DNA of 64,000 nucleotides from Escherichia coli (GTDB taxonomy: Bacteria > Pseudomonadota > Gammaproteobacteria > Enterobacterales > Enterobacteriaceae), in assembly GCF_044647545.1 (NCBI RefSeq), contig NZ_CP172818.1; one strand, 5' to 3'. A program made the position numbers and the translations under genes. The notes below the pieces were generated by a model. The model made no database searches. It saw nothing but the letters and a program-made list of their open reading frames with translations, and was not told where the DNA came from. Below are positions 28,528 to 47,520 of this stretch, piece by piece. Every line of letters begins with the position of its first letter. Position 1 is the stretch's first letter.

Positions 28528-29391
28528 TTAAATGCTTTTACCAAAAGTATTGCATTGTGCCGGATCGCCACTGTCGAAACCACGTTTAAACCAGCTGTAG
28601 CGTTGCTGAGAAGTGCCATGTGTGAAACTGTCTGGTACTACTCGCCCCTGACTTTGCTGTTGTAAACGGTCATCGCCGATGGCCTGCGCCGCGTTCAGCG
28701 CCTCTTCCAGATCGCCGGTTTCCAGAACACCTTGCTGCTGCATACTATGCCCCCAGACACCGGCAAAACAGTCGGCCTGGAGTTCCATACGCACAGATAA
28801 GCGGTTCACTTCCGCCTGCGTCGCGTTTTGTTGCAGTTGACGAACTTTCGGCTCGATGCCTAACAGTTTCTGCACATGATGACCGACTTCATGGGCGATA
28901 ACGTACCCCTGGGCAAAATCGCCATCCGCGCCAAGTTTGTCTTTCATGTCATCATAGAAGGAGAGATCGATATAAACCGTGCCATCCGCCGGGCAATAGA
29001 ACGGTCCCATAATGGATTGGCCCGCCCCGCAGCCGGTGCGCGTCATTCCACGGTACATGACCAGCTTCGGTTGCTGATAGGTTTTACCCATCTTCTCGAA
29101 TTGCTGTCCCCAGGTGTCTTCCGTGGTTGCCAAAATCACCGAAGTGAATTTTGCGGCTTCGTCTTCATTAGGACTAATTGACCGTGTTGATTGCTGTTGG
29201 GAAACCGGCTGTCCGGTCATCAACCCGGTTAAATCAACGCCATAGTAGCCTGCAACCAGCACGACTATCAGTAAAATCAGCCCGCCTTTACCGCTTGGCA
29301 GGCGAAAACCTGGACCGCCCATTGACGGACCGCCGGAGCTATTGCGCCTGTCTTCAACATTGTCACTTTCACGTCGCCCTTGCCAACGCAT
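28528..29391 (-). CDS. ypfJ: putative zinc metalloprotease YpfJ
   Basis: 287-aa ORF with HEVGH zinc-binding motif and N-terminal TM segment. Confidence 0.9.
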
Positions 29392-33132: not shown

Positions 33133-33602
33133 TGAATCCACTGAAAGCCGGTGATATCGCACCGAAATTTAGCTTGCCGGATCAAGACGGAGAACAAGTT
33201 AATTTGACCGACTTCCAGGGACAGCGTGTTCTGGTTTATTTCTACCCGAAAGCCATGACCCCCGGCTGTACCGTACAGGCCTGCGGCTTACGCGATAACA
33301 TGGATGAGTTGAAAAAAGCGGGCGTTGATGTGCTGGGTATCAGCACCGATAAACCCGAAAAACTCTCCCGTTTTGCGGAAAAAGAGCTGCTTAACTTTAC
33401 GCTCCTGTCTGATGAGGACCACCAGGTGTGCGAACAATTCGGCGTCTGGGGTGAAAAGTCCTTCATGGGCAAAACCTACGATGGTATTCATCGCATCAGC
33501 TTCCTGATTGACGCTGATGGCAAAATCGAACATGTTTTTGACGATTTCAAAACCAGCAATCACCACGACGTTGTGCTGAACTGGCTGAAAGAACACGCCT
33601 GA
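33132..33602 (+). CDS. bcp: thiol peroxidase Bcp (peroxiredoxin)
   Basis: 156-aa ORF with peroxidatic motif PKAMTPGCT. Confidence 0.95.
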   Translation: MNPLKAGDIAPKFSLPDQDGEQVNLTDFQGQRVLVYFYPKAMTPGCTVQACGLRDNMDELKKAGVDVLGISTDKPEKLSRFAEKELLNFTLLSDEDHQVCEQFGVWGEKSFMGKTYDGIHRISFLIDADGKIEHVFDDFKTSNHHDVVLNWLKEHA

Positions 33603-33656
33603 TTACTTTGCTCCATTCCGTGCTGGCTGCGCTTGCGGTCAGCACACCTCACTTCT

Positions 33657-33672
33657 CGTGATCAAGATCACA
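33657..33672. promoter_or_regulatory. CRP/FNR-class palindrome upstream of hyf promoter
   Basis: cGTGATCaagaTCACA: perfect GTGA-N6-TCAC core, 14-bp perfect inverted repeat gtgatcaagatcac. Confidence 0.4.
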
Positions 33673-33797
33673 TTCTCGCTTTCCCCTGCGACACGGGTGT
33701 CGAATCCATTTATTGCTGAACGTTAATGACCATCATTTTTGTACCGTTCAGAATCCAGTTAACACATAAATTATTGAATATATTAAATTAATCAGAC

Positions 33798-33814
33798 TGG
33801 CATCCTTTATGCAA
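33798..33814 (+). promoter_or_regulatory. sigma54 (-24/-12) promoter of the hyf operon
   Basis: TGGCATC-N4-ATGCA with GG and GC 12 nt apart; about 40 bp upstream of hyfA ATG, which has an AAGGAG SD. Confidence 0.6.
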
Positions 33815-33854
33815 TATGAAATGCAATGTTTCATATCATTTTCAAGGAGCCGAC

Positions 33855-34472
33855 ATGAACCGCTTTGTGGTGGCCGAACCACTGTGGTGTACAGGATGTA
33901 ATACCTGTCTCGCTGCCTGTTCGGACGTGCATAAAACGCAAGGTTTACAGCAACACCCGCGCCTGGCCCTGGCGAAGACGTCAACACTCACTGCCCCTGT
34001 CGTGTGTCATCACTGTGAGGAAGCCCCTTGCCTGCAGGTCTGCCCGGTCAATGCCATCTCCCAGAGGGACGATGCGATCCAACTCAACGAAAGCCTCTGT
34101 ATTGGCTGCAAGCTTTGCGCCGTGGTCTGCCCATTTGGCGCAATCAGCGCTTCAGGAAGCCGTCCGGTGAATGCCCCTGCGCAATATGTTTTTCAGGCTG
34201 AGGGCTCACTCAAAGACGGCGAAGAAAACGCGCCAACCCAACATGCTTTGCTGCGCTGGGAACCGGGTGTCCAGACCGTCGCGGTGAAATGCGACCTGTG
34301 TGATTTCTTGCCAGAAGGTCCGGCCTGCGTTCGCGCTTGTCCGAATCAGGCGTTACGGCTGATCACCGACGATAGCCTGCAACGTCAGATGAAAGAAAAA
34401 CAGCGCCTTGCCGCAAGCTGGTTTGCCAATGGCGGGGAGGATCCCCTTTCCCTCACTCAGGAGCAACGCTAA
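33855..34472 (+). CDS. hyfA: hydrogenase-4 ferredoxin-type subunit HyfA
   Basis: ATG at 33855 gives 205 aa MNRFVVAEPLWCTGCNTC...; four Cys clusters. Confidence 0.9.
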   Translation: MNRFVVAEPLWCTGCNTCLAACSDVHKTQGLQQHPRLALAKTSTLTAPVVCHHCEEAPCLQVCPVNAISQRDDAIQLNESLCIGCKLCAVVCPFGAISASGSRPVNAPAQYVFQAEGSLKDGEENAPTQHALLRWEPGVQTVAVKCDLCDFLPEGPACVRACPNQALRLITDDSLQRQMKEKQRLAASWFANGGEDPLSLTQEQR

Positions 34473-36490
34473 TGGATGCCCTGCAATTATTAACCTGGTC
34501 GCTGATCCTCTATCTGTTTGCCAGTCTGGCTTCGCTATTTTTACTCGGTCTGGACAGACTGGCTATTAAGCTTTCCGGCATCACATCGCTGGTGGGCGGC
34601 GTGATTGGCATCATCAGCGGAATTACGCAATTACATGCAGGCGTAACTTTAGCCGCCCGTTTTGCCACACCTTTTGAATTTGCCGATTTAACCCTGCGAA
34701 TGGATAGCCTCTCGGCATTTATGGTGCTGGTTATCTCCTTGCTGGTGGTGGTTTGTTCGCTCTATTCATTGACTTATATGCGCGAATACGAGGGTAAAGG
34801 CGCGGCGGCGATGGGCTTCTTTATGAATCTTTTCATCGCATCGATGGTTGCCCTGCTGGTGATGGACAACGCTTTTTGGTTCATCGTGCTGTTTGAAATG
34901 ATGTCGCTGTCTTCCTGGTTTCTGGTCATTGCCAGGCAGGATAAAACGTCGATCAACGCTGGCATGCTCTACTTTTTTATCGCCCACGCCGGATCGGTGC
35001 TGATTATGATCGCCTTCTTGCTGATGGGGCGCGAAAGCGGCAGCCTCGATTTTGCCAGTTTCCGCACGCTTTCACTTTCTCCGGGGCTGGCGTCGGCGGT
35101 GTTCCTGCTGGCCTTTTTCGGTTTTGGCGCGAAAGCCGGGATGATGCCGTTGCACAGCTGGTTGCCGCGCGCTCACCCTGCCGCACCATCGCACGCTTCG
35201 GCGTTGATGTCTGGCGTAATGGTCAAAATCGGTATTTTCGGCATCCTTAAAGTAGCGATGGATCTGCTGGCGCAAACGGATTTGCCGCTGTGGTGGGGCA
35301 TTCTGGTGATGGCGATCGGCGCAATCTCCGCGCTCCTGGGCGTGCTATATGCGCTGGCGGAACAGGATATCAAACGGCTGCTGGCCTGGAGTACCGTCGA
35401 AAACGTCGGCATTATTTTGCTGGCGGTCGGTGTGGCGATGGTCGGTCTGTCACTGCACGACCCGCTGCTCACCGTTGTTGGACTGCTCGGCGCGCTGTTT
35501 CATCTGCTCAACCATGCGCTGTTCAAAGGGCTGCTGTTTCTCGGCGCGGGCGCAATTATTTCGCGTTTGCATACCCACGACATGGAAAAAATGGGGGCAC
35601 TGGCGAAACGGATGCCGTGGACAGCCGCAGCATGCCTGATTGGTTGCCTCGCGATATCAGCCATTCCTCCGCTGAATGGTTTTATCAGCGAATGGTACAC
35701 CTGGCAGTCGCTGTTCTCACTAAGTCGTGTGGAAGCCGTAGCGCTACAACTTGCGGGTCCTATTGCTATGGTGATGCTGGCAGTCACTGGTGGGCTGGCA
35801 GTAATGTGCTTCGTCAAAATGTACGGCATTACTTTCTGTGGTGCGCCGCGCAGTACACACGCTGAAGAGGCACAGGACGTGCCAAATACGATGATCGTCG
35901 CCATGCTACTGCTCGCGGCACTCTGCGTATTCATTGCGCTTAGTGCCAGTTGGCTGGCACCGAAGATAATGCACATTGCCCATGCGTTTACCAATACCCC
36001 TCCCGTCACTGTCGCCAGCGGAATAGCACTTGTACCCGGCACGTTTCATACACGGGTCACTCCCTCATTACTGTTGCTGTTACTACTGGCGATGCCTTTG
36101 CTGCCTGGCCTTTACTGGCTGTGGTGTCGTTCGCGCCGCGCAGCGTTTCGTCGCACAGGAGATGCCTGGGCATGCGGCTACGGCTGGGATAATGCGATGG
36201 CCCCGTCAGGCAATGGCGTGATGCAGCCGCTGCGTGTGGTCTTTTGTGCGCTATTTCGTCTACGACAACAGCTCGACCCTACGCTGAGGCTGAACAAAGG
36301 TCTTGCGCACGTCACCGCCAGGGCTCAGAGCACAGAACCCTTCTGGGATGAGCGGGTGATCCGCCCCATCGTGAGCGCCACCCAACGGCTGGCCAAAGAA
36401 ATACAGCATCTGCAAAGCGGCGACTTTCGTCTCTATTGCCTGTATGTGGTCGCCGCACTGGTTGTGCTGCTAATCGCTATTGCCGTCTAA
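34472..36490 (+). CDS. hyfB: hydrogenase-4 membrane subunit HyfB (NuoL/Mrp antiporter-like)
   Basis: 672-aa polytopic membrane ORF. Confidence 0.93.
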   Translation: MDALQLLTWSLILYLFASLASLFLLGLDRLAIKLSGITSLVGGVIGIISGITQLHAGVTLAARFATPFEFADLTLRMDSLSAFMVLVISLLVVVCSLYSLTYMREYEGKGAAAMGFFMNLFIASMVALLVMDNAFWFIVLFEMMSLSSWFLVIARQDKTSINAGMLYFFIAHAGSVLIMIAFLLMGRESGSLDFASFRTLSLSPGLASAVFLLAFFGFGAKAGMMPLHSWLPRAHPAAPSHASALMSGVMVKIGIFGILKVAMDLLAQTDLPLWWGILVMAIGAISALLGVLYALAEQDIKRLLAWSTVENVGIILLAVGVAMVGLSLHDPLLTVVGLLGALFHLLNHALFKGLLFLGAGAIISRLHTHDMEKMGALAKRMPWTAAACLIGCLAISAIPPLNGFISEWYTWQSLFSLSRVEAVALQLAGPIAMVMLAVTGGLAVMCFVKMYGITFCGAPRSTHAEEAQDVPNTMIVAMLLLAALCVFIALSASWLAPKIMHIAHAFTNTPPVTVASGIALVPGTFHTRVTPSLLLLLLLAMPLLPGLYWLWCRSRRAAFRRTGDAWACGYGWDNAMAPSGNGVMQPLRVVFCALFRLRQQLDPTLRLNKGLAHVTARAQSTEPFWDERVIRPIVSATQRLAKEIQHLQSGDFRLYCLYVVAALVVLLIAIAV

Positions 36491-36500
36491 GGAAATCACC

Positions 36501-37448
36501 ATGAGACAAACTCTTTGCGACGGATATCTGATCATTTTTGCGTTAGCACAGGCCGTGATTCTGCTGGCGCTAACCCCGCTTTTTACGGGGATTTCCCGGC
36601 AGATACGCGCGCGTATGCACTCCCGTCGCGGACCGGGGATCTGGCAGGATTATCGCGATATCCACAAACTGTTTAAACGCCAGGAAGTTGCGCCGACATC
36701 TTCAGGTCTGATGTTCCGCCTGATGCCGTGGGTATTAATCAGCAGCATGCTGGTGCTGGCGATGGCCCTACCACTATTTATTACTGTTTCCCCTTTTGCG
36801 GGCGGCGGCGATCTGATCACCCTTATCTATCTTCTTGCCCTATTTCGTTTTTTCTTTGCTCTTTCCGGGCTGGATACCGGAAGCCCCTTTGCGGGAATCG
36901 GTGCCAGTCGCGAGTTAACGCTCGGCATTCTGGTCGAACCCATGCTCATTCTCTCACTGCTGGTATTGGCGCTGATAGCGGATTCCACGCATATCGAGAT
37001 GATCAGCAAGACGCTGGCGACGGGCTGGAACTCGCCGCTAACCACCGTACTGGCGTTACTGGCCTGTGGTTTTGCCTGCTTCATTGAGATGGGAAAAATT
37101 CCCTTTGATGTTGCTGAAGCAGAACAGGAATTACAGGAAGGCCCGCTGACCGAATATTCCGGTGCCGGGCTGGCGCTGGCGAAGTTGGGGCTGGGGCTGA
37201 AACAGGTCGTGATGGCATCACTGTTTGTGGCCCTGTTTCTGCCCTTTGGGCGCGCGCAAGAGCTTTCTCTCACCTGCCTGCTGACTTCACTTGTCGTTAC
37301 GCTGCTCAAGGTTTTGCTGATTTTTGTTCTGGCCTCTATCGCAGAAAACACGCTGGCACGCGGGCGATTTTTACTCATTCACCATGTGACCTGGCTTGGC
37401 TTCAGCCTTGCTGCGCTTGCCTGGGTCTTCTGGTTAACCGGTCTGTAA
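36501..37448 (+). CDS. hyfC: hydrogenase-4 membrane subunit HyfC (NuoH-like)
   Basis: ATG at 36501 gives 315 aa MRQTLCDGYLIIF... Confidence 0.9.
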   Translation: MRQTLCDGYLIIFALAQAVILLALTPLFTGISRQIRARMHSRRGPGIWQDYRDIHKLFKRQEVAPTSSGLMFRLMPWVLISSMLVLAMALPLFITVSPFAGGGDLITLIYLLALFRFFFALSGLDTGSPFAGIGASRELTLGILVEPMLILSLLVLALIADSTHIEMISKTLATGWNSPLTTVLALLACGFACFIEMGKIPFDVAEAEQELQEGPLTEYSGAGLALAKLGLGLKQVVMASLFVALFLPFGRAQELSLTCLLTSLVVTLLKVLLIFVLASIAENTLARGRFLLIHHVTWLGFSLAALAWVFWLTGL

Positions 37449-37464
37449 GGAGCACTAACGGAAT

Positions 37465-38904
37465 ATGGAAAATCTTGCTCTGACGACGTTATTGCTGCCT
37501 TTTATCGGCGCACTGGTCGTTTCGTTTTCGCCACAACGTCGGGCCGCCGAATGGGGGGTTTTGTTCGCCGCGCTGACCACGCTGTGCATGTTGTCACTGA
37601 TCTCCGCGTTTTATCAGGCCGATAAAGTTGCCGTCACGTTGACGTTGGTCAACGTGGGGGATGTGGCGTTGTTTGGCCTGGTCATTGATCGCGTGAGTAC
37701 GCTGATTCTGTTTGTGGTGGTGTTCCTCGGTTTGCTGGTCACGATCTACTCCACGGGTTATCTGACGGATAAAAATCGCGAACACCTGCATAACGGCACG
37801 AATCGTTATTACGCATTTTTGCTGGTTTTTATCGGCGCGATGGCGGGACTGGTACTCTCCTCGACGCTGCTCGGTCAGTTGTTGTTTTTTGAAATTACGG
37901 GCGGCTGCTCCTGGGCGTTGATCAGTTATTACCAGAGCGATAAAGCGCAGCGTTCAGCACTAAAAGCGTTACTTATCACTCATATCGGTTCGCTGGGGTT
38001 GTATCTTGCCGCCGCCACGCTGTTTTTGCAGACCGGAACGTTTGCGCTTAGCGCGATGAGCGAGTTACACGGCGACGCACGTTATCTGGTTTATGGCGGC
38101 ATCCTGTTTGCCGCGTGGGGGAAATCGGCCCAGCTACCGATGCAAGCGTGGCTACCGGATGCAATGGAAGCGCCAACACCGATCAGCGCCTATCTCCACG
38201 CCGCATCGATGGTGAAAGTGGGCGTTTACATTTTTGCCCGTGCCATTATCGACGGCGGCAATATCCCGCATGTGATTGGCGGCGTTGGCATGGTTATGGC
38301 ACTGGTCACCATTCTTTACGGCTTCCTGATGTATTTGCCACAGCAGGATATGAAGCGGTTGCTGGCCTGGTCGACCATCACTCAACTTGGCTGGATGTTT
38401 TTCGGCTTGTCGCTCTCCATCTTCGGCTCGCGGCTGGCGCTGGAGGGCAGCATCGCCTACATCGTCAACCACGCGTTCGCTAAAAGCCTATTTTTCCTTG
38501 TAGCAGGTGCGCTGAGTTACAGCTGCGGCACGCGCTTGTTGCCGCGTCTGCGTGGCGTATTGCACACCCTGCCGTTGCCAGGCGTGGGTTTCTGCGTAGC
38601 CGCGCTGGCGATTACTGGCGTACCGCCGTTCAACGGCTTCTTCAGTAAATTCCCGCTGTTTGCCGCCGGTTTTTCGTTGTCAGTGGAGTACTGGATCCTG
38701 CTGCCCGCCATGATTCTGCTGATGTTTGAATCGGTCGCCAGTTTCGCCTGGTTTATTCGCTGGTTTGGTCGCGTCGTGCCTGGCAAACCGAGCGAGGCCG
38801 TCGCCGATGCCGCACCGCTGCCAGGATCAATGCGCCTGGTGTTGATTGTACTGATTGTGATGTCGCTGATTTCCAGCGTAATCGCCGCGACCTGGTTGCA
38901 GTAA
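37465..38904 (+). CDS. hyfD: hydrogenase-4 membrane subunit HyfD (antiporter-like)
   Basis: 479-aa polytopic membrane ORF. Confidence 0.93.
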   Translation: MENLALTTLLLPFIGALVVSFSPQRRAAEWGVLFAALTTLCMLSLISAFYQADKVAVTLTLVNVGDVALFGLVIDRVSTLILFVVVFLGLLVTIYSTGYLTDKNREHLHNGTNRYYAFLLVFIGAMAGLVLSSTLLGQLLFFEITGGCSWALISYYQSDKAQRSALKALLITHIGSLGLYLAAATLFLQTGTFALSAMSELHGDARYLVYGGILFAAWGKSAQLPMQAWLPDAMEAPTPISAYLHAASMVKVGVYIFARAIIDGGNIPHVIGGVGMVMALVTILYGFLMYLPQQDMKRLLAWSTITQLGWMFFGLSLSIFGSRLALEGSIAYIVNHAFAKSLFFLVAGALSYSCGTRLLPRLRGVLHTLPLPGVGFCVAALAITGVPPFNGFFSKFPLFAAGFSLSVEYWILLPAMILLMFESVASFAWFIRWFGRVVPGKPSEAVADAAPLPGSMRLVLIVLIVMSLISSVIAATWLQ

Positions 38905-38915
38905 GGAGATGATGA

Positions 38916-39566
38916 ATGACCGGTTCTATGATCGTAAATAATCTGGCGGGACTGATGATGCTGACATCGCTGTTTGTGATTAGCGTCAAAAGCTATCGCC
39001 TGTCATGCGGATTTTACGCCTGCCAGTCGCTGGTGCTGGTGTCTATTTTCGCCACCCTCTCGTGCCTGTTCGTCGCAGAGCAACTGCTGATCTGGTCCGC
39101 CAGCGCCTTTATCACCAAAGTGCTGCTGGTACCGTTAATCATGATTTACGCTGCACGAAATATTCCCCAGAACATCCCGGAAAAAGCGTTATTCGGTCCG
39201 GCTATGATGGCATTGCTCGCGGCATTAATTGTCCTGCTTTGCGCATTTGTCGTTCAGCCCGTGAAGCTACCGATGGCTACCGGGCTGAAACCGGCGCTGG
39301 CGGTGGCGTTAGGTCATTTTCTGCTTGGCCTGCTGTGCATTGTCAGCCAGCGCAATATCCTGCGGCAAATTTTTGGTTACTGCCTGATGGAAAACGGCTC
39401 CCATCTGGTGCTGGCGCTTCTTGCCTGGCGTGCACCGGAACTGGTGGAAATTGGTATCGCTACCGACGCCATCTTCGCCGTCATTGTGATGGTGTTACTG
39501 GCAAGAAAAATATGGCGTACCCACGGCACGCTGGACGTGAACAACTTGACCGCGCTGAAGGGATAA
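38916..39566 (+). CDS. hyfE: hydrogenase-4 membrane subunit HyfE
   Basis: 216-aa membrane ORF. Confidence 0.92.
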
Positions 39567-39570
39567 TGAG

Positions 39571-41151
39571 ATGAGTTATTCTGTGATGTTCGCTTTACTC
39601 CTGCTCACGCCGCTGCTTTTTTCGCTGCTCTGTTTTGCCTGCCGGAAATGGGGACACTCTGCGACTCGCACGGTGACAGTACTACATAGCTTAGGGATCA
39701 CACTGCTGCTGATTCTGACACTGTGGGTGGTCCAAACTGCCGCTGATGCGGGAGAAATATTCGCTGCGGGACTGTGGCTTCATATTGATGGTCTGGGCGG
39801 TTTGTTCCTCGCCATTCTTGGTGTGATTGGCTTTCTCACCGGTGTTTACTCGATTGGCTACATGCGTCATGAAGTGGCACACGGCGAGCTTTCACCCGTT
39901 ACGCTGTGCGATTACTACGGTTTCTTCCATCTGTTTTTGTTCACCATGCTGCTGGTTGTTACCAGCAATAACCTGATTGTGATGTGGGCGGCGATCGAAG
40001 CCACCACCTTAAGCTCGGCGTTTCTGGTAGGCATTTACGGTCAGCGTTCATCGCTGGAAGCTGCATGGAAGTACATCATTATTTGTACTGTTGGTGTCGC
40101 TTTTGGTCTGTTCGGTACCGTGCTGGTATACGCCAACGCCGCCAGCGTTATGCCGCAGGCAGAAATGGCGATATTCTGGAGCGAGGTTCTTAAGCAATCG
40201 TCCTTGCTTGACCCAACATTAATGCTGTTGGCCTTTGTGTTTGTGCTAATTGGCTTTGGCACCAAAACCGGGCTATTCCCCATGCACGCCTGGCTGCCAG
40301 ATGCTCACAGTGAAGCGCCGAGTCCGGTCAGCGCCCTGCTCTCCGCCGTATTGCTGAACTGCGCGCTATTGGTGCTGATTCGCTATTACATCATTATTTG
40401 CCAGGCCATCGGCAGCGATTTCCCCAACCGGTTGTTGCTCATCTTCGGCATGTTGTCGGTTGCCGTGGCGGCATTTTTCATTCTGGTACAGCGGGACATT
40501 AAGCGTCTGCTGGCGTACTCCAGCGTGGAGAACATGGGACTGGTCGCGGTGGCGTTAGGCATTGGCGGGCCGCTGGGAATTTTTGCCGCGCTGCTGCACA
40601 CCTTAAACCACAGTCTGGCAAAAACGCTGCTGTTCTGCGGTTCCGGCAATGTACTGCTCAAGTACGGCACGCGCGATCTCAACGTCGTCTGCGGAATGCT
40701 CAAAATCATGCCATTTACCGCCGTGCTGTTTGGCGGCGGTGCGCTGGCGCTGGCCGGGATGCCGCCCTTCAACATTTTTCTTAGCGAATTTATGACCGTT
40801 ACCGCCGGACTGGCGCGTAATCACCTGCTGATTATCGTCCTGCTGTTATTGCTGTTAACGCTGGTGCTGGCGGGCCTGGTACGGATGGCTGCGCGGGTGT
40901 TAATGGCGAAACCGCCGCAGGCCGTTAACCGGGGTGAACTTGGCTGGTTGACCACCTCGCCAATGGTGATTCTGCTGGTCATGATGCTGGCGATGGGAAC
41001 GCATATTCCACAACCTGTCATCAGGATCCTGGCGGGCGCTTCCACTATAGTCCTCTCAGGGACGCACGACCTGCCTGCACAACGTAGCACCTGGCATGAT
41101 TTTTTGCCTTCAGGCACCGCATCTGTTTCGGAGAAACACAGTGAACGTTAA
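39571..41151 (+). CDS. hyfF: hydrogenase-4 membrane subunit HyfF (antiporter-like)
   Basis: 526-aa polytopic membrane ORF. Confidence 0.93.
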
Positions 41152-42856
41152 TTCATCGTCAAATCGTGGCGAAGCGATTCTCGCCGCCCTGAAAACGCAG
41201 TTCCCCGGCGCGGTGCTGGATGAAGAGCGACAAACGCCTGAACAGGTCACCATTACGGTGAAAATCAATCTGCTGCCTGACGTTGTGCATTATCTTTATT
41301 ATCAACATGATGGCTGGCTTCCGGTCCTGTTTGGCAACGACGAGCGGACACTTAACGGTCATTACGCGGTTTATTATGCCCTTTCTATGGAAGGGGCCGA
41401 AAAATGCTGGATCGTGGTGAAGGCACTGGTCGATGCCGACAGTCGGGAGTTTCCGTCAGTCACACCGCGCGTCCCTGCCGCGGTCTGGGGCGAGCGAGAA
41501 ATTCGCGATATGTACGGGTTGATTCCGGTTGGCCAGCCGGATCAGCGTCGGCTGGTGTTGCCCGATGACTGGCCGGAAGATATGCATCCGCTGCGCAAAG
41601 ACGCGATGGATTATCGACTGCGCCCAGAACCGACGACTGATACCGAAACGTATCCGTTTATCAACGAGGGCAACAGCGATGCGCGGGTGATCCCTGTCGG
41701 CCCGCTGCATATCACCTCCGATGAACCAGGTCACTTCCGCTTGTTTGTGGATGGCGAGCAAATTGTCGATGCTGATTACCGCCTGTTTTATGTCCATCGC
41801 GGCATGGAGAAACTGGCAGAAACGCGGATGGGCTACAACGAAGTGACCTTCTTATCCGACCGCGTGTGTGGGATTTGCGGTTTTGCCCACAGTGTGGCCT
41901 ATACCAACTCGGTTGAAAATGCACTGGGGATTGAGGTGCCGCAACGAGCGCATACTATTCGCTCGATTCTGCTGGAAGTCGAACGGCTGCATAGTCATTT
42001 GCTCAACCTTGGCCTCTCCTGCCATTTTGTTGGTTTTGATACCGGCTTTATGCAATTTTTCCGCGTGCGGGAAAAGTCGATGACGATGGCGGAATTGCTG
42101 ACCGGGTCGCGTAAAACCTACGGTCTGAATCTGATTGGTGGTGTTCGCCGCGATATTCTCAAAGAGCAACGTCTGCAAACGCTGAAACTGGTGCGCGAGA
42201 TGCGCGCCGACGTGTCGGAGCTGGTAGAGATGTTGCTTGCCACGCCGAATATGGAACAACGCACTCAGGGCATTGGCATTCTCGACCGACAAATCGCCCG
42301 TGATTATAGCCCCGTAGGGCCGCTGATCCGCGGCAGTGGCTTTGCCCGTGATTTGCGCTTTGATCACCCCTACGCCGACTACGGCAATATTCCCAAAACG
42401 CTGTTTACCTTTACCGGCGGCGATGTCTTCTCCCGCGTGATGGTCCGTGTCAAAGAGACGTTTGATTCGCTGGCAATGCTGGAATTTGCCCTCGACAACA
42501 TGCCAGATACCCCACTGCTGACCGAAGGCTTTAGCTATAAACCTCACGCATTCGCGCTGGGCTTTGTTGAAGCGCCACGTGGTGAAGACGTGCACTGGAG
42601 CATGCTCGGTGATAACCAAAAATTGTTCCGCTGGCGCTGTCGTGCCGCCACCTACGCCAACTGGCCAGTGCTGCGTTACATGCTGCGCGGCAATACCGTT
42701 TCTGACGCACCGCTGATTATCGGTAGCCTTGATCCCTGTTACTCCTGTACCGACCGTGTGACGCTGGTTGATGTGCGCAAGCGCCAGTCAAAAACCGTGC
42801 CGTATAAAGAGATCGAACGCTACGGCATTGATCGTAACCGTTCGCCGCTGAAGTAA
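41141..42856 (+). CDS. hyfG: hydrogenase-4 [NiFe] large subunit HyfG
   Basis: N-terminal [11 protein letters not shown] and C-terminal DPCYSCTDR Ni-Fe ligand motifs; start placed at GTG 41141 ([13 protein letters not shown]...), exact start uncertain. Confidence 0.85.
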
Positions 42857-42865
42857 GGACAGAAA

Positions 42866-43411
42866 ATGCTGAAGTTACTGAAAACTATTATGCGCGCCGG
42901 AACCGCGACGGTGAAATATCCCTTCGCGCCACTGGAGGTCAGCCCAGGCTTTCGCGGGAAACCGGACCTGATGCCCAGCCAATGTATTGCCTGCGGTGCC
43001 TGCGCCTGTGCTTGTCCGGCAAATGCGCTGACTATCCAGACCGACGACCAACAAAATACGCGCACCTGGCAGCTCTATCTGGGGCGTTGTATTTACTGCG
43101 GACGTTGTGAAGAAGTGTGCCCGACCAGAGCCATTCAGCTTACCAATAACTTTGAACTGACCGTCACCAATAAAGCCGATCTCTATACCCGCGCGACGTT
43201 TCATCTACAACGTTGCAGTCGTTGCGAACGCCCATTTGCCCCGCAAAAAACCGTCGCACTGGCTGCAGAACTGTTGGCACAGCAACAAAATGCGCCACAA
43301 AACCGCGAAATGTTGTGGGCGCAAGCGAGCATCTGCCCGGAATGCAAACAACGCGCGACGCTGATCAACGACGATACAGATGTACCGCTGGTGGCTAAGG
43401 AGCAGCTATGA
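42866..43411 (+). CDS. hyfH: hydrogenase-4 2x[4Fe-4S] ferredoxin subunit HyfH
   Basis: 181-aa ORF with [12 protein letters not shown] and [12 protein letters not shown]. Confidence 0.93.
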
Positions 43412-44166
43412 GTCCAGTGCTTACGCAACATGTCAGCCAGCCCATAACGCTGGACGAGCAAACGCAAAAGATGAAGCAGCATTTGCTACAGGATATCCGT
43501 CGCTCGGCTTACGTTTATCGCGTCGATTGCGGCGGCTGCAACGCCTGCGAAATCGAAATTTTTGCCGCCATCACACCCGTATTCGACGCAGAACGTTTTG
43601 GCATTAAGGTTGTTTCATCACCGCGTCACGCCGATATTTTGTTATTTACTGGCGCAGTCACCCGGGCGATGCGTATGCCTGCACTTCGGGCATATGAGTC
43701 TGCCCCCGATCATAAAATCTGTGTTTCCTACGGCGCGTGCGGTGTCGGCGGCGGTATTTTCCACGATCTTTACAGCGTCTGGGGCGGCAGCGACACCATT
43801 GTCCCCATTGATGTTTGGATCCCCGGCTGCCCGCCAACACCGGCCGCCACCATTCACGGTTTCGCCGTGGCGCTCGGTTTGCTGCAACAGAAGATTCACG
43901 CGGTGGATTATCGCGATCCCACCGGGGTGACCATGCAACCGCTGTGGCCGCAGATCCCGCCATCACAGCGTATCGCCATTGAGCGAGAAGCGAGGCGGCT
44001 GGCGGGCTATCGTCAAGGGCGAGAAATTTGCGATCGGCTCCTGCGCCATTTAAGCGACGATCCTACAGGAAATCGGGTTAACACCTGGTTGCGCGAAGCT
44101 GACGATCCACGTCTCAATAGTATCGTTCAGCAACTCTTTCGCGTTCTCCGGGGGTTACATGGCTGA
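43408..44166 (+). CDS. hyfI: hydrogenase-4 small subunit HyfI (NuoB-like)
   Basis: 252-aa [13 protein letters not shown] and GCPP motifs; 4-nt overlap with hyfH. Confidence 0.93.
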
Positions 44167-44572
44167 GGAGTGCAGGGAAATTGTTTTCTGGACGCTGCGA
44201 AAAAAATTTATCGCCAGTAGCGACGAGATGCCGGAACACAGCTCCCAGGTAATGTATTACTCGTTGGCTATCGGTCATCACGTTGGCGTGATTGATTGTT
44301 TGAATGTCGCCTTCCGCTGCCCACAGACGGAATACGAAGATTGGCTTGCACAGGTCGAAGAGGAGCAAGCCCGACGTAAGATGCTGGGGGTGATGACTTT
44401 TGGTGAGATTGTTATTGACGCCAGCCACACCGCCCTGTTGACCCGGGCATTCGCGCCACTGGCAGATGACGCGACGTCGGCGTGGCAGGCGCGTAGCATT
44501 CAATTCATTCATCTGTTGGATGAAATTGTGCAGGAACCGGTCATCTATCTGATGGCCAGAAAAATTGCGTGA
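44159..44572 (+). CDS. hyfJ: hydrogenase-4 accessory protein HyfJ (HycH-like)
   Basis: 137-aa ORF, 8-nt overlap with hyfI. Confidence 0.9.
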
Positions 44573-44601
44573 GAAGGATTTCTCATTAATAAGGACTGTT
44601 G

Positions 44602-46614
44602 ATGGCTATGTCAGACGAGGCGATGTTTGCCCCGCCGCAAGGAATAACAATTGAAGCGGTAAACGGAATGCTCGCGGAGCGGTTAGCACAGAAACACGGC
44701 AAGGCGTCTTTATTACGCGCCTTCATCCCGCTGCCGCCGCCGTTCAGCCCGGTACAACTTATTGAACTGCATGTTCTCAAAAGCAACTTCTATTACCGCT
44801 ACCATGATGATGGCAGCGATGTGACGGCAACAACAGAGTATCAGGGTGAGATGGTCGATTATTCGCGCCACGCCGTCCTTCTCGGCAGTAGTGGAATGGC
44901 GGAGCTACGCTTTATTCGCACCCACGGCAGTCGTTTTACTCCCCAGGATTGCACACTGTTTAACTGGCTGGCACACATAATCACTCCGGTTCTGCAATCA
45001 TGGCTCAATGATGAAGAACAGCAGGTGGCGCTGCGTTTGCTGGAGAAAGATCGCGATCATCATCGGGTACTGGTGGATATCACTAATGCAGTGTTGTCAC
45101 ATCTTGATCTCGACGATCTGATCGCTGACGTCGCTCGTGAGATCCATCATTTTTTCGGTCTGGCTTCAGTCAGTATGGTACTGGGCGATCATCGAAAGAA
45201 CGAGAAGTTCAGCCTGTGGTGCAGCGATCTTTCTGCCTCACATTGTGCGTGTCTGCCACGCTGTATGCCTGGCGAAAGTGTATTGCTGACACAAACGCTA
45301 CAAACCCGACAACCGACCTTGACGCACTGTGCAGACGATCTGTTTCTCTGGCAACGCGACCCGTTATTACACTTACTTGCATCTAACGGCTGCGAATCTG
45401 CGCTCCTTATACCGCTCACCTTTGGCAACCATACACCGGGTGCATTGTTGCTGGCGCATACCTCTTCCACTCTCTTTAGTGAGGAAAACTGCCAGCTACT
45501 ACAACATATTGCCGATCGCATCGCTATTGCCGTTGGCAATGCCGATGCCTGGCGCAGCATGACCGATTTGCAGGAAAGCTTGCAGCAAGAAAACCACCAG
45601 CTTAGCGAGCAGCTCCTTTCGAATCTGGGCGTCGGTGACATTATCTATCAAAGCCAGGCAATGGAAGACCTGCTCCAGCAGGTAGATATTGTGGCGAAGA
45701 GCGACAGTACGGTGTTGATTTGTGGTGAAACCGGAACCGGCAAAGAGGTGATCGCCAGAGCGATCCATCAACTTAGCCCACGACGCGACAAGCCACTGGT
45801 CAAAATCAACTGCGCTGCCATCCCCGCCAGTCTTCTGGAAAGTGAGTTATTCGGTCATGACAAAGGGGCATTTACTGGTGCGATTAATACCCATCGTGGT
45901 CGTTTTGAAATTGCCGATGGCGGCACGTTGTTTCTCGATGAAATTGGCGATCTGCCGTTAGAACTTCAGCCTAAACTGCTGCGCGTATTGCAGGAACGGG
46001 AGATTGAGCGTCTCGGCGGGAGTAGAACGATCCCGGTAAATGTCAGAGTCATTGCCGCCACCAACCGTGATTTGTGGCAAATGGTTGAAGATCGCCAGTT
46101 TCGCAGCGATCTCTTTTATCGCCTGAATGTCTTCCCACTGGAACTGCCGCCACTGCGCGACCGTCCGGAAGATATCCCTCTTTTAGCAAAGCATTTCACG
46201 CAAAAAATGGCGCGCCATATGAATCGCGCAATTGACGCCATCCCGACCGAGGCGCTACGCCAGTTGATGTCGTGGGACTGGCCGGGCAACGTGCGCGAGC
46301 TGGAAAACGTGATTGAGCGAGCGGTACTACTGACTCGCGGTAACAGTCTGAATTTACATCTTAATGTCCGACAAAGCCGTTTACTGCCGACGCTAAATGA
46401 AGATTCAGCGCTTCGCAGTTCAATGGCGCAGTTACTGCACCCGACGACGCCAGAGAATGACGAAGAAGAACGTCAGCGCATTGTTCAGGTATTGCGAGAA
46501 ACCAATGGCATTGTTGCCGGGCCCCGTGGCGCGGCGACACGATTAGGGATGAAGCGCACCACGCTGCTGTCACGAATGCAGCGTCTGGGGATCTCGGTTC
46601 GCGAGGTGTTGTAA
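44602..46614 (+). CDS. hyfR: sigma54-dependent transcriptional activator HyfR (FhlA-like)
   Basis: 670 aa from ATG 44602; AAA+ sigma54-activator domain ([14 protein letters not shown]) and C-terminal HTH. Confidence 0.93.
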
Positions 46615-46635
46615 TCTGTTTTTGCAGGAGTATGC

Positions 46636-47484
46636 ATGAGAAACAAACTCTCTTTCGACTTGCAGTTGAGCGCCAGAAAAGCGGCAATCGCTGAACGGAT
46701 TGCCGCCCATAAAATTACCCGCAGCAAAGTGTCGGTCTTTTTAATGGCGATGTCCGCAGGCGTGTTTATGGCGATCGGATTTACTTTTTACCTTACCGTT
46801 ATCGCCGATGCCCCGTCTTCACAGGCATTAACCCATCTGGTGGGCGGCCTTTGCTTTACACTCGGCTTTATTTTGCTGGCGGTTTGCGGCACCAGCCTGT
46901 TCACCTCGTCGGTAATGACGGTGATGGCAAAAAGTCGGGGCGTTATTAGCTGGCGAACATGGCTGATTAATGCACTTCTGGTGGCCTGCGGTAATCTGGC
47001 AGGTATTGCCTGTTTCAGTTTGTTAATCTGGTTTTCCGGGCTGGTGATGAGTGAAAACGCGATGTGGGGAGTCGCGGTTTTACACTGCGCCGAGGGCAAA
47101 ATGCATCATACATTTACTGAATCAGTCAGCCTCGGCATTATGTGCAATGTGATGGTTTGCCTGGCGCTGTGGATGAGTTATTGCGGACGTTCGTTATGCG
47201 ACAAAATCGTCGCCATGATTTTGCCCATCACCCTGTTTGTCGCCAGTGGCTTTGAGCACTGTATCGCCAATTTATTTGTGATTCCGTTCGCCATTGCCAT
47301 TCGCCATTTCGCCCCTACCTCCTTCTGGCAACTGGCGCACAGTAGCGCAGACCATTTTCCGGCACTGACGGTCAGCCATTTTATTACCGCCAATCTGCTC
47401 CCGGTGATGCTGGGTAATATTATCGGCGGTGCAGTGCTGGTGAGTATTTGTTATCGGGCTATTTATTTACGTCAGGAACCCTAA
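46636..47484 (+). CDS. focB: formate channel FocB (FNT family)
   Basis: 282-aa membrane ORF, last gene of hyf cluster. Confidence 0.93.
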   Translation: MRNKLSFDLQLSARKAAIAERIAAHKITRSKVSVFLMAMSAGVFMAIGFTFYLTVIADAPSSQALTHLVGGLCFTLGFILLAVCGTSLFTSSVMTVMAKSRGVISWRTWLINALLVACGNLAGIACFSLLIWFSGLVMSENAMWGVAVLHCAEGKMHHTFTESVSLGIMCNVMVCLALWMSYCGRSLCDKIVAMILPITLFVASGFEHCIANLFVIPFAIAIRHFAPTSFWQLAHSSADHFPALTVSHFITANLLPVMLGNIIGGAVLVSICYRAIYLRQEP

Positions 47485-47516
47485 AAATCAGCCCGGCGAA
47501 ACAGTTCGTCGGGCTG
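47484..47516. terminator. bidirectional stem-loop terminator between focB and perM
   Basis: agcccggcg ...loop... cgtcgggct (9-bp stem, one G-T); T5 follows on the minus strand. Confidence 0.5.
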
Positions 47517-47520
47517 AAGA

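Follow-up and report, generated by a model that had tools for sequence, protein, structure and literature searches.

The 64,000-nt stretch of Escherichia coli DNA analysed here, hereafter the window, carries the sigma-54 (RpoN)-dependent promoter hyfAp of the hydrogenase-4 operon, a reading to which we give a probability of about 95%. The promoter element, cTGGCATCCTTTATGCA, was located by direct reading of the sequence at positions 33797-33813 of the + strand, within the 252-nt spacer between bcp and hyfA. Its identification as a sigma-54 promoter, proposed in the first-pass annotation of this DNA, is supported by the geometry and orientation of the element, by its conservation across genera, and by the ChIP-seq and gSELEX data for K-12. 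hyfAp is a catalogued, experimentally supported promoter, and its recognition here is no discovery. The individual upstream assignments, namely which block binds which protein and what roles IHF and CRP play, are predictions from the sequence and are held less firmly than the identity of the promoter.

Position and geometry of the -24/-12 element

The 16-nt core of the element, TGGCATCCTTTATGCA (TGGCATC-CTTT-ATGCA), occupies positions 33798-33813 (+ strand); the surrounding sequence in the window reads ...aatcagaCTGGCATCCTTTATGCAatatgaaatgcaatgtttcatatcattttcAAGGAGccgacATGaaccgc. The first-pass annotation had described the pattern as TGGCATC-N4-ATGCA with GG and GC dinucleotides 12 nt apart, and had placed it at 33798-33814. 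The dinucleotides are indeed found at 33799-33800 (-24 GG) and 33811-33812 (-12 GC), in the arrangement GG-N10-GC with 12 nt from start to start. The first coordinate of the proposed span is correct as well, while the last one, 33814, falls one base past the 16-nt pattern. The element is intergenic, points at hyfA and displays the geometry of a sigma-54 promoter (YTGGCACGR-N3-TTGCW, exact N10), deviating from the strict consensus at -21 (T instead of C) and at -15 (A instead of T). The heptamer ATGCAAT is repeated in this region (33809-33815 and 33821-33827). A second -12 element at the downstream copy was considered and rejected, because there is no GG 12 nt upstream of it.

The distance between the element and the hyfA start codon (ATG, 33855) is 42 nt, in agreement with the ~40 nt initially proposed, and the AAGGAG Shine-Dalgarno sequence claimed for hyfA is present at 33844-33849 (+ strand), 5 nt before the ATG. 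It is kept as AAGGAG or AGGGAG in the cross-genus alignment. Transcription is predicted to start at 33824-33825 (+ strand), 12-13 nt past the C of the -12 GC, which would give a 5' UTR of 30-31 nt; this predicted start precedes the Shine-Dalgarno sequence by 19-20 nt. For this strain, the precise base at which transcription begins is deduced from the promoter geometry. In K-12, the hyf start has reportedly been mapped by primer extension 30 bp upstream of hyfA and found to depend on sigma-54 and FhlA; start-site mapping and the dependence on rpoN and on fhlA/hyfR are said to be essentially published already.

The gene hyfA (33855-34472, + strand) encodes a 4Fe-4S ferredoxin-type subunit of hydrogenase 4 (205 aa), as indicated by PGAP annotation of an identical sequence and by the presence of Fer4 domains, and is the first gene of hyfABCDEFGHIJ(R-focB). 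The ATG at 33855 agrees with the PGAP start on that identical sequence. The program that listed open reading frames instead opens this frame at 33816, an in-frame ATG located upstream of the predicted transcript start.

Match quality and chance expectation

The pattern TGGCAY-N5-WTGCW has a single exact match in the window, against 0.54 expected, and at least one match was obtained in 45 of 100 shuffles. The strict consensus with two mismatches was uninformative, with 47 matches against 47.0 expected in the window. The site was also scored by a log-odds matrix trained on the 41 further sigma-54 ChIP-seq sites that are intergenic and oriented towards a gene (Bonocora et al., 2015), the hyfA site being left out. 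At 15.07 bits, it ranked first among ~128,000 positions on both strands of the window and fell inside the range of the training sites (9.0-21.7 bits; median 16.0). However, simulation of 64-kb sequences with a first-order Markov model gave 1.1 matches with at least this score. For the 252-nt spacer, sense strand, the simulated rate translates arithmetically into ~0.002 such matches.

Thus, the motif by itself does not exceed chance, since 64 kb of random sequence should contain 0.54-1.1 matches of this quality. The case for hyfAp therefore rests on the position of the element, its conservation and the published binding data.

Published data and comparison with K-12

The homologous K-12 site, ATGGCATCCTTTATGCA, corresponds to ChIP-seq peak OS23, which was assigned to hyfA with a fold-above-threshold (FAT) value of 16 and a start 31 nt away (Bonocora et al., 2015). 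In Table 1 of the same study, OS23 is flagged 'C', i.e. experimentally confirmed in EcoCyc. In gSELEX with the RpoN holoenzyme, the bcp>hyfA spacer reached 92% of the top peak; with NtrC, it was the highest (100%) (Shimada et al., 2021). FhlA and HyfR appear in the title of Skibinski et al. (2002) as the sigma-54-dependent regulators of the hyf operon. As quoted in a paper citing Skibinski et al. (2002) and Self et al. (2004), hyf is poorly expressed, or 'silent', in K-12; therefore, occupancy is not equal to activity under ordinary conditions. Published work on relatives includes Proteus mirabilis, where the orthologous hyf promoter loses activity in fhlA and rpoN mutants, and Pectobacterium, where hydrogenase-4 activity requires hyfR.

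The site examined here and K-12 hyfAp (hyfABCDEFGHIJR-focB) have in common the locus, the 16-nt core, the spacing from hyfA and the neighbours bcp and hyfA, and the two sequences are identical from TGGCA to the ATG. They differ at -26 (33797), where K-12 has A and this strain has C. The latter is closer to the consensus, with a score of 15.07 bits as compared to 13.57 bits for the K-12 version. The whole 252-nt spacer contains nine single-base differences between the two strains, so that eight besides that at -26 are located further upstream.

Conservation at orthologous loci

A scan for HyfA with one genome per species yielded 45 loci, and the 350 nt upstream of each were scored by the same matrix. 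The loci were sorted by downstream gene order, those with hyfB-hyfC-hyfD synteny being regarded as hyf-type. All 27 hyf-type loci of the Enterobacterales (Citrobacter, Kosakonia, Atlantibacter, Sodalis, Morganella, Providencia, Dickeya, Pectobacterium and one MAG) carried a -24/-12 match scoring 10.9-19.3 bits, with the -12 C 41-86 nt ahead of the start codon. The opposite strand of these upstream stretches gave an equally strong match in one locus only. The seven hyc-type loci had no comparable element in the stretch upstream of hycB (best match 10.3 bits, at 320 nt). These loci provide an internal negative control: with hycA located ahead of hycB, the promoter should lie elsewhere. The element was also absent from the same 350-nt stretches in five hyf-type loci of alpha- and betaproteobacteria. 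High motif scores for the hyf site in several genera are also given in the conservation table of Bonocora et al. (2015).

The hyf promoters of Citrobacter, Kosakonia, Atlantibacter, Proteus/Morganella/Providencia, Dickeya and Pectobacterium share with that of E. coli the motif 41-86 nt upstream of the gene, an IHF-like A/T block and TGTCGA/CGACA repeats. They differ in the sequence of the spacer between GG and GC, in leader length and in flanking genes; only Escherichia, Citrobacter and Kosakonia have bcp next to hyfA on the upstream side. In Dickeya undicola, the minus strand within 350 nt upstream of hyfA carries an additional sigma-54 match of 16.5 bits. This arrangement suggests a divergent sigma-54 promoter pair, like that of hycA/hypA in E. 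coli.

Conserved blocks upstream of the promoter

The bcp-hyfA spacer was aligned for eight sequences from Escherichia, Citrobacter (four species) and Kosakonia (two species), all with bcp upstream. Discrete blocks, including the Shine-Dalgarno sequence and the start codon, are kept amid otherwise diverged sequence. Within the -24/-12 element, only the letters TGGCA and TGC are invariant. The positions of block centres given below were counted from the start at 33825.

The most distal block is a CRP-like palindrome, cGTGATCAAGATCACa, at 33657-33672 (centre ~-160.5), with one mismatch to TGTGA-N6-TCACA. This pattern has six matches in the whole window, and 0.02 are expected per spacer. The site is a perfect TGTGA-N6-TCACA in Citrobacter and is largely kept in Kosakonia. 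The hyf operon has reportedly been called silent and dependent on CRP. EcoCyc is quoted as listing hyfR, and hence the hyf unit, as regulated by CRP-cAMP.

An inverted repeat, CGACAC-GG-GTGTCG, occurs at 33689-33702 (centre ~-129.5) and is a candidate upstream activator sequence for FhlA/HyfR. The letters CGACAC...TG.CG are invariant in Escherichia, Citrobacter and Kosakonia, and related TCGACAC-N-GACGA or TGTCGA repeats are present upstream of the hyf promoters of Atlantibacter, Sodalis, Morganella, Providencia, Dickeya and Pectobacterium. In K-12, the sigma-54 motifs of the hyc-hyp spacer are preceded by CGACA/TGTCG repeats, and fdhF by TCGTC/GACGA repeats.

The next conserved block, TGACCATCATTTTTGT, is at 33725-33740 (centre ~-92) and is possibly a second activator half-site. 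Its part TGACCATCAYTTTTGT is invariant in all eight aligned sequences of Escherichia, Citrobacter and Kosakonia and loosely resembles CGACATCATCGACA in the FhlA region of the K-12 hyc-hyp spacer. An FNR-like reading (TTAATGACCATCAT, two mismatches) was rejected, as the match is absent from Citrobacter.

An IHF-like site, ATTCAATAATTTA, separates the upstream repeat from the -24 element; it was found on the - strand at 33767-33779 (centre ~-52), with one mismatch to WATCAANNNNTTR. Its core CATAA-N4-TTGA is kept in the alignment, and the sequence of Citrobacter NCU1 is a perfect match. Similar A/T-rich ...TTGA/CTGAT... blocks occupy a comparable place in the more distant hyf promoters. A ModE-like reading of the A/T-rich block overlaps the IHF-like site, was unsupported and was rejected.

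From the resemblance of these blocks to those of distant hyf promoters, the hyc-hyp spacer and fdhF, we infer an FhlA/HyfR enhancer at 33689-33702, possibly together with 33725-33740, and an IHF bend site at 33767-33779. With regard to the layout of an upstream activator (~80-150 bp, with IHF in between), the spacer holds the inverted repeat at -129.5, the block at -92 and the IHF-like site at -52 with its one mismatch; the fit to the FhlA consensus is poor. Namely, FhlA boxes defined by the consensus of the Proteus paper match the spacer only with 3-4 mismatches and were not assigned. The assignment of the activator site is tentative, since the published FhlA consensus fits the hyf upstream region only with at least three mismatches.

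The formate-regulon promoters controlled by FhlA (hycA, hypA, fdhF and hydN) resemble that of hyf in having a -24/-12 element, which in their case is located 20-41 nt before the first gene. Comparable repeats upstream of the sigma-54 motif occur in the hyc-hyp spacer (CGACA/TGTCG) and at fdhF (TCGTC/GACGA). Further common traits are an A/T-rich IHF-type region between repeats and motif, and an activator of the GAF-AAA+-HTH type. The -24/-12 element of hyf is weaker than those of hypA and hycA, with PSSM scores of 10.5 versus 14.1 and 12.4 and FAT values of 16 versus 201 and 91, respectively, in the scoring of Bonocora et al. (2015). The hyf promoter is also unlike the other formate-regulon promoters in having a paralogous activator gene, hyfR, in its cluster, a CRP-like site and low native expression.

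The hyf cluster and HyfR

As judged from the annotation of identical sequence, the gene order in this region is gcvR-bcp, hyfABCDEFGHIJ-hyfR-focB and yfgO. Positions 33300-34500, which span bcp, hyfA and hyfB, are 100% identical to several E. coli chromosomes. All 12 open reading frames of the hyf cluster, from hyfA at 33855 through focB at 46636-47484, are intact in the window.

The gene hyfR (44602-46614, + strand) was recognized by domain search and annotation as encoding a bacterial enhancer-binding protein of 670 aa. The domains detected were GAF (E = 6.6e-13), Sigma54_activat (E = 4.7e-75) and AAA_lid_14 (E = 4.5e-23). HTH_8 was marginal, its 21.1 bits being slightly below the 22-bit cut-off. 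HyfR carries the domain set of a sigma-54-dependent enhancer-binding protein. A gene for a cognate enhancer-binding protein is present in the cluster in the form of hyfR; fhlA lies elsewhere in the genome, outside the window.

The initial suggestion that the operon encodes its own sigma-54-dependent activator therefore holds for the gene cluster, in which these domains were found. It does not necessarily hold for the transcript. The chromosomal hyfR of K-12 is said to be poorly expressed and perhaps not co-transcribed with hyfA-J; RT-PCR across hyfJ-hyfR reportedly gave no product, and deletion of the chromosomal gene is said to have had no effect. FhlA is reportedly the main native activator in K-12.

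Variation among E. coli genomes

The promoter is carried by 4297 of 5426 complete E. coli genomes, all but one of which show an identity of 95% or more across 33790-33857. In 3742 of these 4297 genomes, no change occurs within the 34 nt that run from TGGCA to ~+7 (33798-33831). Over the 68-nt stretch 33790-33857, the version present in the window (C at -26) was found unchanged in 674 of the 4297 genomes and the K-12 version (A) in 2599. In the remaining ~1129 genomes (~21%, e.g. ST131), the match stops ~49 nt past bcp. Presence or absence of the entire hyf cluster, including promoter and enhancer region (33652-47520, ~13.9 kb), is polymorphic in E. coli. Since bcp directly adjoins yfgO in one ST131 genome, promoter and operon are either both there or both missing, as one unit.

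A few rare deviating alleles were observed; those of the two named isolates below fall in the region homologous to 33797-33815. The -24 GG is changed to GA in the E. coli O157 assembly FDAARGOS_293, A is changed to T at ~-10 in O157:H7, and the pig isolate Res13-Lact-PEB14-36 has a 14-nt tandem duplication of CATCCTTTATGCAA, which displaces the start region. The change of GG to GA and the 14-nt duplication could be natural promoter-down or altered-start alleles, or sequencing errors.

Strain FDAARGOS_497 (NZ_CP033850.1) is identical to the window around hyfA; its ypfJ is split by a group II intron (ltrA reverse transcriptase/maturase) at 8886-12092. In the window, ypfJ is intact (287-aa open reading frame, 28528-29391) with K-12-like spacing, and an Rfam scan of the whole window gave no match to any family, introns included. 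The window thus comes from a strain other than FDAARGOS_497. The two sequences correspond only from the vicinity of dapA on; an identical stretch of 1.2 kb did not guarantee colinearity.

Other sigma-54-like sites in the window

The second-best matrix match in the window (14.24 bits), ATGGCGCAGTTACTGCA, is located at 46423-46439 (+ strand) in the 3' end of hyfR, ~197 nt before focB (46636), and has an intact GG-N10-GC. It points at focB, and hyfR-focB is said to be transcribed apart from hyfA-J. ATGGCGCAGTTACTGCA is probably a chance match, because hyfR and focB do not appear in the supplementary tables examined from the ChIP-seq study of Bonocora et al. (2015).

The published intragenic sigma-54 ChIP-seq site IA19, ACGGTACAATTTATGCA in K-12, has its homologue in the window at 19079-19095 on the - strand, antisense within narQ (18415-20115). 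Here the sequence is ACGGTACAATTTATGTA, with the -12 GC changed to GT, a substitution expected to impair binding or abolish it. The narQ-acrD spacer contains GTGGCACTTAAGGTTCA at 20139-20155 (+ strand), ~124 nt before acrD (20279), which has a good -24 half (TGGCAC) and no -12 GC (TTCA). The gene acrD is among the RegulonDB sigma-54 targets in the gSELEX paper (Shimada et al., 2021); high-stringency ChIP-seq gave no peak at the narQ-acrD spacer.

Proposed mode of action and alternative explanations

In the mechanism that we propose, RNA polymerase-sigma-54 holoenzyme would bind 33797-33813 and form a stable closed complex that is unable to open the DNA alone. FhlA, and HyfR when expressed, would occupy the upstream repeats ~90-130 bp from the start, for which 33689-33702 and perhaps 33725-33740 are the candidates. 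Bending at the IHF-like site at ~-52 may bring the activator to the polymerase, and ATP hydrolysis by its AAA+ domain would then produce the open complex, with initiation at ~33824-33825. The resulting transcript would have a leader of ~30 nt with the AAGGAG ribosome-binding site ahead of hyfA. CRP-cAMP bound to the CRP-like site at ~-160 would probably add catabolite control.

Alternatively, the element could be a poised, essentially non-productive sigma-54 binding site of an operon that is effectively silent in natural E. coli and has little physiological output. We consider this unlikely. The idea draws on the poor native expression reported for hyf, and on the fact that ChIP-seq and gSELEX measure binding rather than transcription; the cluster and its promoter are, moreover, dispensable, as they are missing in about one-fifth of complete E. 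coli genomes. However, conservation of the -24/-12 element and of the upstream blocks across genera argues for selection on function, and multicopy, plasmid-borne hyfR is said to raise expression of hyfA-lacZ ~1000-fold. Silence is also a matter of degree; it fits the low expression in K-12 and leaves the identity of the site unchanged.

It is highly improbable that the motif is a chance match without a role and that hyfA is transcribed from a sigma-70 promoter or by read-through from bcp: a match of equal quality is indeed expected about every 64 kb in random sequence, and some read-through is conceivable, as the weak hairpin 3' of bcp (33620-33645) lacks a T-run and no terminator was called there, but a simple sigma-70 scan of 33560-33900 revealed zero -35/-10-like sites against 0.7 expected in shuffles (a weak negative), sigma-54 binds the site in vivo and in vitro in K-12, and the distance to hyfA is conserved in many genera, with the expectation of ~0.002 matches for the sense strand of the spacer.

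Implications for hydrogenase 4

As the sigma-54-dependent promoter of the hydrogenase-4 operon, hyfAp serves as a positive control, in which a real -24/-12 promoter and a linked activator gene were recognized from sequence alone. The arrangement of CRP-like site, CGACAC/GTGTCG repeat, -92 block, IHF-like site and -24/-12 element also offers an ordered map for activating the poorly expressed hydrogenase 4 (formate hydrogenlyase-2). The invariant TGACCATCAYTTTTGT at ~-92 might bind an uncharacterised factor. As a speculation to which we attach only a small likelihood, such a factor, or the C allele at -26 with its ~1.5 bits of gain towards the consensus, could tune the silence of hydrogenase 4 among lineages. 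If true, this tuning would fit the presence/absence polymorphism of the whole promoter-plus-operon unit in E. coli.
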